Positions 10,691 through 12,684 of a stretch of DNA of 64,000 nt are shown in pieces; the stretch's first letter is position 1, and every line of letters begins with the position of its first letter. The stretch comes from Macrostomum lignano (Eukaryota). Location: NCBI GenBank assembly GCA_002269645.1, contig NIVC01000084.1:1054001-1118000 (forward strand), in the 5' to 3' direction. The notes below the pieces were generated by a model. It made no database searches, was not told the DNA's origin, and worked only from the letters and a program-made list of their open reading frames with translations. The translations under genes were made by a program, and so were the position numbers.

Positions 10691-11917
10691 ATGGCAGCTT
10701 GCATCAAGACGGAGTCAATTGTACGCTCCGACTCGAGTCCGATTTTCTACGTTGGAGAGCAGTCTACAACCACGACTGGTTCGTCCTGCCAGTTTCGATC
10801 TATTGCGTGGAAACCATCAATCGAGTGTACAAAATGGTACCCAATTATATTGCAAACCAAGGCTCCAATGGAGCTTTTTCGTGGAATCGCAGAAAGGCCA
10901 GAGCTCGATCATCCGTCTTGCAGACACGACTCTCGCGACGCAGTAAGTGTCCAATTTCATCCAGACAGCTGCGATAAGGAACTCTTCCACTCTCTCCGGT
11001 GAGCACCATATTTAATTTATACAATTAATTTTAAAAACTTTTAAAAATTTAAAAAACAAATATTCATAATTTATATAATGTTTTGCAGTCAAGTCGAAAA
11101 AGGTCTATCGGGCAAGTTGAACGAGATTCAAGATGCTCGACCCTTGGCACGACTAACAAAACCAGCTCATCAGCATGCTAACGACGTCCTCGAGTTTGTG
11201 CCTCAACAATGGCTGGCTATAAAGCCTGCTTACCCTTGTGCCACAATCAGGATCAGCAACGATCATCCACACGGGAAGGAGGTGTCCATTTCCGATTTCA
11301 AAGGTGTCAGCGGTACCTACCAAATGACAGTGCAAGCAACGAGCTTGTATTGTCCAAAAGGCAGCCTCGTCTGGCGCATTACATTCGCTGTGCGCTCTCT
11401 AACGCTCATAGAATCTTCCGACAACATGTTGCAGCGCCTTGACATGTTCAAGGGAGTGCTTGCACACCTACCTGCGACCAAGCCAGCAATTAGAAGCAGG
11501 AGTCCGTCCCCAACGTCTACCCATGACCAAGAAGAAGCAGATGAACAAAGCCGGCAGAATTCAAGCCAGGTGACGCCTGCCAAGTCACCTGCAAAGCGTC
11601 GGTCTACCACCACCGTATCGAAGAAGTCGACTCCATCGAATGCAGCGCCAGCATCTATTGAACCGGTGGCTAAAAAGCAAGTTCGCAAACGCAGCGGTGC
11701 AAAACAGCAAAACAATTCTGCCGAAGCTGGTGCAGATGGCACAGACTGGGTGAAGGCACCACCAGCAAAGATCTTGGTGAGTACACCTGCCTCTGGAACC
11801 CGGGTAGCGTCCAAGGAGACAGCATTTTTAAAGCATGCTGCTGCTGCTGCTGCGGACGCTACTACAGCTAGCGTGTATTCATCGGACGATTCGTACAGCA
11901 GCTCTGATGATGAGTAA
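10691..11917 (+). CDS. Spliced putative ssDNA-binding protein, T7 gp2.5/NCLDV SSB-like (exons 10691-10998, 11089-11917; ~378 aa)
   Basis: Donor CG|GTGAGC (phase 2) plus acceptor TTTTGCAG|T join ORFs 10691..11002 and 11078..11917 in frame; PIILQTKAPMELFRG, beta-rich MTVQATSLY...WRITFAVRSLTL and an acidic tail SSDDSYSSSDDE. The fold call is inferred by eye. Confidence 0.55.
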
Positions 11918-12126
11918 CAAAATTTTTGACTAATTTTATCCAAGTTTTAACTAACTTAATTCCACTATATTTATCAAATTTTTGGCTAGGGAAATATTAT
12001 TTTTAGGGAAAAGCTCAAAACATTTTTGCTACTCCTTGTACGCCAACCAGGTTTTGTTACTTAATATTAGAATTTACAATAGTATAGTCTTGTTAATTTT
12101 TTTTTATTATTTACTTTCCGTTTTAG

Positions 12127-12684
12127 CGACTTGTCCTATTAATAGTTACTGCGAGTCTGAAGCTGCGTCCGTTTGAAAAATTTGATTTAAAGCAGACCAA
12201 ACAGAAGCTACAGACCAGAAACCGGTTTTGCAAACTATTCCTAAGCCGACCAACAATGCTAAAGACAATTTATTCAAACGCAAAAATCCAACTTTATCCA
12301 GCAGGAAAACTAACTATATATGGCTGTAAATCAAATTCTCAGATAGTTTCAGTTTTACGATTTATCAACGATACTATTAATTGTGTAGATTTTGATTCAG
12401 TAAAAATTCAGAGCAGTACCTATGTCGGCTTTATTGGTCATCTTTGGCCAAAATTCGGTTTCTCTAGTCTAAAAAGATATGCAGGCTACTATTCGAATTA
12501 TCTGGTTGGATACGATGCAGAAAATTTCCCACAAGCAGTTTCTGTTAGATCAAAATCAAAACCAAGACTTTTTTGTAACATATTTTTTTCGAAAAAGTTT
12601 GTTATTATGGGCGTTCAAAACACTCATGAATTGAATAATATTCTTAACCATGTCAAGGATTTTTTAATCTCTGTTAATAACTAA
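12127..12684 (+). CDS. Divergent TATA-binding protein (TBP)-like protein, ~185 aa two-repeat core
   Basis: AKIQLYPAGKLTIYGCKS matches TBP TALIFSSGKMVCTGAKS; VKIQSSTYV matches FKIQNMVG; YDAENFPQ...KPRLFCNIFFSKKFVIMG matches YEPELFPG...KPRIVLLIFVSGKVVLTG. The frame is open 43 codons upstream of ATG 12256 (LLIVTASLKL..FDLKQ matches NIVSTVNL..LDLK), back to the acceptor at 12125-12126. Confidence 0.85.
   Translation, partial: RLVLLIVTASLKLRPFEKFDLKQTKQKLQTRNRFCKLFLSRPTMLKTIYSNAKIQLYPAGKLTIYGCKSNSQIVSVLRFINDTINCVDFDSVKIQSSTYVGFIGHLWPKFGFSSLKRYAGYYSNYLVGYDAENFPQAVSVRSKSKPRLFCNIFFSKKFVIMGVQNTHELNNILNHVKDFLISVNN

Follow-up and report, generated by a model that had tools for sequence, protein, structure and literature searches.

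A TBP-like domain, probably the final exon of a Polinton gene with alternative splicing, in the flatworm Macrostomum lignano

The window, a stretch of 64,000 nucleotides of Macrostomum lignano DNA in which positions are counted from the first letter, carries a Polinton/Maverick element of 19.6 kb. Upstream of the polymerase gene of this element, an open frame for a TBP-like domain begins directly at a splice acceptor. The features discussed here are the following.

5945 to 25526, plus strand: Polinton/Maverick element with terminal inverted repeats (TIRs), recognized by its TIRs, termini and Pfam gene set.
10691 to 10998, plus strand: exon 1 of the upstream gene, from ATG 10691; UniRef model P0014 spans exon 1 and exon 2.
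10999 to 11088, plus strand: intron 1, 90 nt, GT..AG, spliced (joint in three of four runs; spliced UniRef models in three families).
11089 to 11776, plus strand: exon 2 up to the alternative donor, with a conserved domain, a low-complexity linker and terminal P-P-A-K-I-L.
11777 to 11917, plus strand: donor GTGAGT at 11777, the 46-codon acidic tail of the short isoform and its stop codon (contigs unspliced at the donor, three of four runs).
11777 to 12126, plus strand: predicted intron 2, used alternatively, 350 nt with both ends in phase 0 (both splice sites at all 21 loci, codon test, distant clade).
12127 to 12684, plus strand: TBP-like exon, 185 codons, first Met at codon 44 (ATG 12256) (Pfam, profile, Atlas, alignment).
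12822 to 12842, plus strand: spliced-leader (SL) acceptor before the polymerase gene (AG 12840-12841, exon from 12842), marked by a 23-nt loose end in an RNA contig.
12913 to 17149, plus strand: gene of the protein-primed polymerase B (polB) with an N-terminal C2H2 finger and its own ATG at 12913, in three frames in this copy.
17984 to 24494, plus strand: eight TATAAG motifs (17984, 19161, 20201, 20597, 21418, 22800, 23152 and 24489) before structural-module genes, candidate late promoters.

The element is a Polinton/Maverick. Its TIRs are 108 nt long and 95% complementary, its terminal motifs occur 49 times in the genome, and a perfect 6-bp target-site duplication (TSD) was present in eight of the 12 copies for which both ends were checked, the copy in the window having none. 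Its Pfam gene set comprises a protein-primed polB (PF03175, E=6e-20), an integrase with rve (PF00665) and chromo (PF00385) domains, both above cut-off, a dUTPase and a PLA2-like protein. A 440-aa ORF examined as the double jelly-roll major capsid protein had no match in Pfam or PDB, and the matches of the packaging ATPase (Pox_A32, E=0.02, in a sister copy) and of the cysteine protease (PF00770, E=0.038) were weak; the names capsid, ATPase and protease are assigned from size, gene order and weak matches. The flatworm host, which had been inferred from the DNA letters in an initial annotation, was confirmed by 43 exact copies of the 35-nt M. lignano SL, which ends in ATG and was taken from the part of PMC8629364 that gives it, and by the UniRef entries for the upstream protein, which are labelled M. 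lignano.

In the window copy, the polB, dUTPase, ATPase and minor capsid ORFs (12904-20198) are split over frames, which, together with the missing TSD, reflects either decay or an assembly error. Short tandem repeats were seen by eye in the left arm of the element (6570-6850 and 9250-10000). L107, a copy of the most abundant subfamily, lacks 3.16 kb of the polymerase core, corresponding to 13788-16948 of the window, and the distances between the TBP-like and capsid genes suggest the same loss in most of this subfamily. If so, these copies would lack autonomy while retaining an intact spliced gene.

The gene upstream of the TBP-like exon had been described as an SSB gene with a phase-0 donor at 11777. 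The gene and its donor stand, but the gene proved to consist of two exons from ATG 10691, and the name SSB is not established. Intron 10999-11088 joins the ORF starting at ATG 10691 to the ORF annotated as SSB, both in RNA contigs and in UniRef models from three families, and the 378-aa UniRef model P0014 matches exon 1 and exon 2. RNA was followed over 10050-13570 in contigs of four runs from four studies; such contigs drop rare forms. None of the four runs is recorded as RNA, but intron 1 was spliced in three of them, which shows that these three hold RNA and that the transcript is a substrate of the spliceosome. ATG 10691 is the start of the upstream gene, whose intron 1 is removed by the host spliceosome. 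Donor 11777 was read through in three of the four runs, one contig being unspliced over 11687-13570; a read-through form encoding a 378-aa short protein with an acidic tail therefore exists.

The conserved domain of the upstream protein had no match in Pfam, PHROGs or PDB, and fold searches with exon 2 alone gave a best Z of 2.5 with a low-confidence model (pLDDT 50). The ESM Atlas led to DUF2738/DUF5871 clusters with weak likeness (0.86-0.89). The acidic tail of the short isoform is the C-terminal feature sought in a T7-like or viral OB-fold SSB. We take DUF2738 to be the T7-like SSB of large DNA viruses, and we weakly regard the domain, at about even odds, as a putative viral-type single-stranded-DNA-binding protein. 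The UniRef names of the upstream protein (P0006-P0015: OTU, YDG, VASt, FYR and HORMA domain) conflict with one another, and no Pfam support was found in the three tested.

The TBP-like identity proposed for 12127-12684 held up well. Pfam PF00352 was matched in two stretches with E=2e-7 and 31.2 bits (gathering cut-off 22.9), and a profile of 11 relatives matched 35 PDB sequences, all of them TBP or TBP fusions. Many of these matches extend over profile positions 15-177, that to 2z8u over 6-182, so that both repeats of solved TBPs are covered. In the ESM Atlas, the top match scored 0.97, 29 of the 30 matches belonged to the PF00352-only set and the remaining one also carries PF00352; the nearest clusters were mostly viral, and the recognition score of 1978 lies under the tool's 2300 mark. 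F38 is aromatic (F or Y) in 10/10 rows and corresponds in the alignment to the Phe of KRFAA, a TBP motif, while Y57, F134 and F153 are present in 11/11 rows; all four align with Phe positions of TBP, which we take to be its four DNA-intercalating aromatics. For the saddle fold, Foldseek returned no match with a low-confidence single-sequence model (pLDDT 48) as the query. Word-based homologue searches with the domain gave no match, and scans of metagenome and viral contigs gave no relative. A full HMMER scan of 1.84 billion representatives yielded five matches, four of which are true relatives from other data sets; the fifth, a tick repeat protein, was set aside. Two relatives from other assemblies (P0002 and P0004) have Gln followed by Lys/Arg behind a Phe/Leu-rich stretch at the same position, as expected for a translated acceptor.

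The frame of this domain has no ATG at its beginning. It opens directly behind TTTACTTTCCGTTTTAG, which ends at 12126, and cannot extend upstream because the TAG of the acceptor is itself an in-frame stop. ATG 12256 (M44) is the sole ATG within 11918-12258. The start at a phase-0 acceptor, behind a polypyrimidine tract and TAG, was thus confirmed exactly, and the stretch reported as free of ATG (11918-12126) even continues through 12255. With pyrimidines at 16 of 20 positions, the acceptor is joint top of the 529 YAG sites on the plus strand of the element, three of which reach 16. The 43 codons before ATG 12256, already noted as conserved, are 35-47% identical to nine relatives, on a par with codons 44-185 (38-47%). 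A protein begun at M44 would lack these conserved residues including F38. Synonymous and non-synonymous changes within families were too few for use over codons 1-43 (0-4 and 0-4 per close pair).

Copies of the element were collected from the genome with a 1-kb query (40 matches). Acceptor and donor were kept in all 30 close copies fetched, and the full 185-codon frame in 25 of them. A protein search gave 84 matches, of which 20 divergent loci, representing five further families whose TBP-like domains are 39-46% identical, were taken. In all 21 loci (six families, the window included), the TBP-like domain begins at a YAG with an Arg codon behind it, and the conserved stretch sets in precisely at the AG. 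All 21 also have a GTRAGY donor 259-619 nt upstream of the acceptor, at the same K-x-L|V-S site and in phase 0 of the upstream ORF. The acceptor is thus retained in 30/30 close copies and 20/20 divergent loci, the comparison among copies that had been proposed as a check. This rules out that the window copy lost its ATG by mutation while other copies have one, although in one family an in-frame ATG does lie 11 codons upstream in 3/4 loci; the remaining families either have no upstream ATG or have ATGs that are out of frame or cut off by stops. Judged from this comparison, the missing ATG is ancestral.

The donor is constrained as DNA, beyond the protein sequence. Taking one representative per family, Val-Ser at the donor is encoded by GTR-AGY in 6/6 families, the preceding Leu being TTG, CTG, CTC or CTT, whereas GTRAGY is found in only 1/13 other V-S pairs and the codon class changes within other conserved columns of Ser and Val. 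Multiplying the family codon frequencies gives 6.5e-6, a value that is overstated since the families are related. In the window, the 1037 nt that run from exon 2 to the acceptor contain a single GTRAG, that of TTG|GTGAGT at 11777, and 12126 is the only pyrimidine-rich YAG between the donor and the TBP-like exon. Long open frames of sister families (340-500 aa) were considered as intronless fusions and rejected, as their extension is downstream. The five sister families have a P-loop ORF directly after the TBP-like exon (L040-L052), which the window family lacks (window 12685-12912); in L050 this ORF is a deoxynucleoside kinase (Pfam E=8e-25) fused in frame to the TBP-like domain.

Distant elements of the same genome, with capsids 31-35% identical to that of the window, were also compared. 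Since seven of eight carry a TBP-like ORF, the gene is common in M. lignano Polintons. In two distant clades it is a stand-alone gene with its own ATG; one such start, M-S-P-P-A-T-A-L-R-V, resembles by eye the P-P-A-K-I-L and R-L-V of the window. A third clade (capsid about 31-33% identical) repeats the layout of the window in 4/4 loci, with a phase-0 donor AAG|GTAGG in the upstream ORF, a tail of 46-70 codons, an intron of 67 or 196-197 nt and an acceptor, TTGCAG, that has no Met close to it. The residues K-I-K, encoded ahead of the donor in this clade, and N-V-x-C, encoded behind the acceptor, add up to a match with K-I-Q-N-I-V, the TBP strand motif; the strand-1 residues of this clade, as read from its DNA, would not come from a leader AUG. 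The splice points of the third clade and the window clade are three codons apart and may be independent or shifted. The upstream ORFs of the two clades are weakly similar (hhalign E=0.02, probability 2.3%).

From these comparisons we conclude, with a probability of about 0.72, that the TBP-like ORF forms the final exon of a Polinton gene with alternative splicing and is expressed as a cis-spliced fusion. Use of donor 11777 with the acceptor at 12126 would swap the 46-aa tail for the 185-aa TBP-like domain, a step for which we make a strong case, and would give a fusion of about 517 aa (332+185) whose start codon comes from exon 1. Of the two in-frame routes put forward initially, SL trans-splicing and cis-splicing from 11777 to 12127, the second is thus strongly supported by comparison, while its junction appeared in none of the four runs. 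Indeed, neither junction 11776-12127 nor an SL at 12127 was found in the contigs of the four runs, among the pieces listed; this is the junction search that had been suggested, carried out on contigs, which drop rare forms. Neither the fusion nor the form with an SL at 12127 dominates these samples, and the fusion would probably be a minor or stage-specific isoform. The predicted intron-2 junction occurs in no genomic copy. No fusion protein was present among the five HMMER matches in 1.84 billion representatives or in a long-protein search, itself a weak search, and the TBP domain was absent from the five clusters and ten members found with the upstream domain.

The strongest competitor is SL trans-splicing at 12126 from a polycistronic transcript, in which the leader AUG would start a stand-alone TBP-like protein of 186 aa. 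The host SL ends in ATG, the acceptor is in phase 0 in all families, and SL-AUG initiation is established in flatworms according to the relevant passage of PMC9851317, which cites Cheng 2006. Moreover, the element takes the SL at its polymerase gene, four sister families seem to need the SL-AUG there, and the stand-alone size would fit the ATG-bearing distant relatives. However, no SL was seen at 12127 even in the run that shows one at 12842, and trans-splicing leaves unexplained both the nucleotide-level conservation of the upstream donor and the way in which the distant clade divides the strand-1 motif between donor and acceptor sides. These last two points led us to prefer cis-splicing; in addition, the part of PMC8629364 dealing with this question describes acceptors with an upstream donor in cis as not predominantly trans-spliced. 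As the main route, trans-splicing at 12126 is therefore unlikely; that it occurs at all, for instance as a coexisting minor route, is a distinctly better prospect, if still doubtful.

It is very improbable that the donor is real but is joined to another acceptor, either that of the polymerase or a site within the tail, with the TBP-like exon started otherwise. The polymerase acceptor is also in phase 0 in four sister families, UniRef P0012 joins the donor to an in-tail site and P0013 ends at the donor; against this, 12126 stands alone as a pyrimidine-rich YAG between donor and TBP-like exon in the window, the polymerase acceptor of the window is out of frame and takes the SL, and the distant clade is predicted to join its donor to the TBP-like exon over as little as 67 nt. 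Translation from M44, invariant in 11/11 rows, or from a near-cognate codon early in the frame (TTA, ATA and CTG are in frame among codons 5-11), with incidental splice signals, is slightly less probable again: one family does have an upstream in-frame ATG, but codons 1-43, which contain F38 and the helix-1 region, are conserved like the rest, conservation starts exactly at the AG in all 21 loci, and M44 falls on a hydrophobic position in a TBP strand.

A spliced leader was found at the polymerase gene. In one contig of run X10, one of the four runs, a 23-nt loose end corresponds to SL nt 12-34 and is joined at 12841/12842. In the window and L048 families, the polymerase begins at its own ATG-Pro, five codons before the zinc-finger Cys and behind an out-of-frame acceptor. 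Once the SL is added, the leader AUG opens a 10-codon uORF ahead of the window polymerase ATG, and a further ATG precedes it at 12876 (window 12842-12913); this arrangement may hold polymerase translation low. The four sister families (L040-L046, L050-L051) have TTCCAG| before a Pro codon that lies 4 or 10 codons before the zinc-finger Cys. Upstream of this, L040/41 and L050/51 have no in-frame Met, while there is one 40 codons up in L042/43 and 19 codons up in L044/46. In these four families the leader AUG likely starts the polymerase; since the SL was observed at the polymerase acceptor of the window, this is the simplest start, and cis-splicing from an upstream donor to the polymerase acceptor is possible. 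A general dependence of element genes on the SL-AUG was considered and set aside: the structural-module genes examined have, by eye, a Met at or near conserved starts in the sister families. The SL-AUG strategy proposed for the TBP-like gene thus fits the polymerase, where the SL was seen at 12842; at the TBP-like exon no SL was seen, and a conserved donor lies upstream.

Among hexamers, TATAAG shows the strongest enrichment in the structural modules of six elements. It occurs 41 times in 41.3 kb of late modules (7.1 expected), as against two occurrences on the opposite strand, and is absent from 28.0 kb of early (replication) modules. All eight plus-strand sites of the window element fall within 17984-24494. 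TATAAG(C/T)A stands at conserved distances before the same genes in the window, L064, L066, L068, L073 and L077, the distance from TATAAG to the ATG being, for instance, 43-54 nt for the minor and 124-166 nt for the major capsid gene. The distant clades have few such motifs, 0-5 per 10 kb of the capsid strand when flanks are counted in. With moderate confidence, and by analogy, we propose that the TBP-like domain is the element's late-gene factor, which would read TATAAG before the structural genes. Possible alternatives are a TATA variant read by the host or a helper-virus late motif of the TAAG type.

In the proposed mechanism, the putative ssDNA-binding upstream domain would tether the factor to replicating genomes and would thereby couple transcription of structural genes to replication. 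Taken as a whole, this would amount to a staged, virus-like expression on the host spliceosome: one gene would give both the SSB and the SSB-TBP fusion, the fusion on replicating genomes would switch on structural genes at TATAAG, and the polymerase mRNA would be SL-trans-spliced, with the leader providing the initiator in 4/6 families. This combined picture is tentative, with odds of roughly one to two.

Expression of Polinton genes is largely undescribed in the literature found, and the RNA contigs add one intron and one SL junction, while the second, alternative intron, predicted by comparison, is found conserved in six families as well as in a distant clade. A TBP-like factor encoded by the element, together with a motif confined to the structural module, would allow cheap and direct tests of a late programme in animal Polintons, and transgenesis is available in the model animal M. 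lignano. Where hosts use trans-splicing, Polinton genes are overlooked or cut short by annotation that relies on ORFs. An element that depends on a leader AUG could be tied to flatworm hosts.

The element resembles known Polintons/Mavericks (adintoviruses, MELD viruses) in its TIRs, its protein-primed polB, its rve integrase, the 6-bp TSD of most copies checked, a PLA2-like gene and a putative protease-like gene, and in a size of about 15-20 kb. Figure legends in PMC8502044 and in bioRxiv 10.1101/697771 already carry the gene label TBP for MELD viruses. In the passages of PMC8097293 on this subject, intact vertebrate Mavericks are reported to be intronless, and virions were not observed in vertebrates; by contrast, here intron 1 is spliced, a second alternative intron is predicted and the polymerase mRNA takes the host SL. 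The open-access literature searched contained no account of Polinton genes that are spliced or trans-spliced, nor of the TATAAG motif, and PMC11161782 and PMC10748475 have no passage on TBP or splicing that bears on this.

For a TBP-like domain acting at TATAAG, the herpesviruses offer an analogy in how the factor would work, not a homology comparison. The relevant part of PMC7498053 describes KSHV ORF24 and its homologues in beta- and gamma-herpesviruses as TBP mimics for late genes that use a non-canonical TATA-like motif. The motif in question is TATT. ORF24 has a Pol II-binding N-terminal domain and belongs to a six-protein complex, whereas here the partner would be a putative DNA-binding protein joined by splicing. 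As regards the leader, the corresponding section of PMC9851317 states that the AUG at the end of the flatworm SL can serve as the initiator. ORFs starting at the SL-AUG are known for host genes, and here they fit the polymerase of four sister families; in contrast to them, the evidence for the TBP-like exon points to cis-splicing.

Among Nucleocytoviricota, TBP-like proteins are found, and their DUF2738/DUF5871 proteins show the weak Atlas likeness to the upstream domain; no alignment supports an SSB link. To our knowledge, no spliced SSB-TBP fusion has been described in Nucleocytoviricota, and we know of no adenovirus that encodes TBP or uses trans-splicing. The fold of the adenovirus DNA-binding protein is unrelated to anything tested in the Polinton gene. 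Nevertheless, adenovirus E2 expresses a DNA-binding protein and a protein-primed polymerase by host splicing from one replication module, and the Polinton is like it in expressing genes of its replication module through host splicing.
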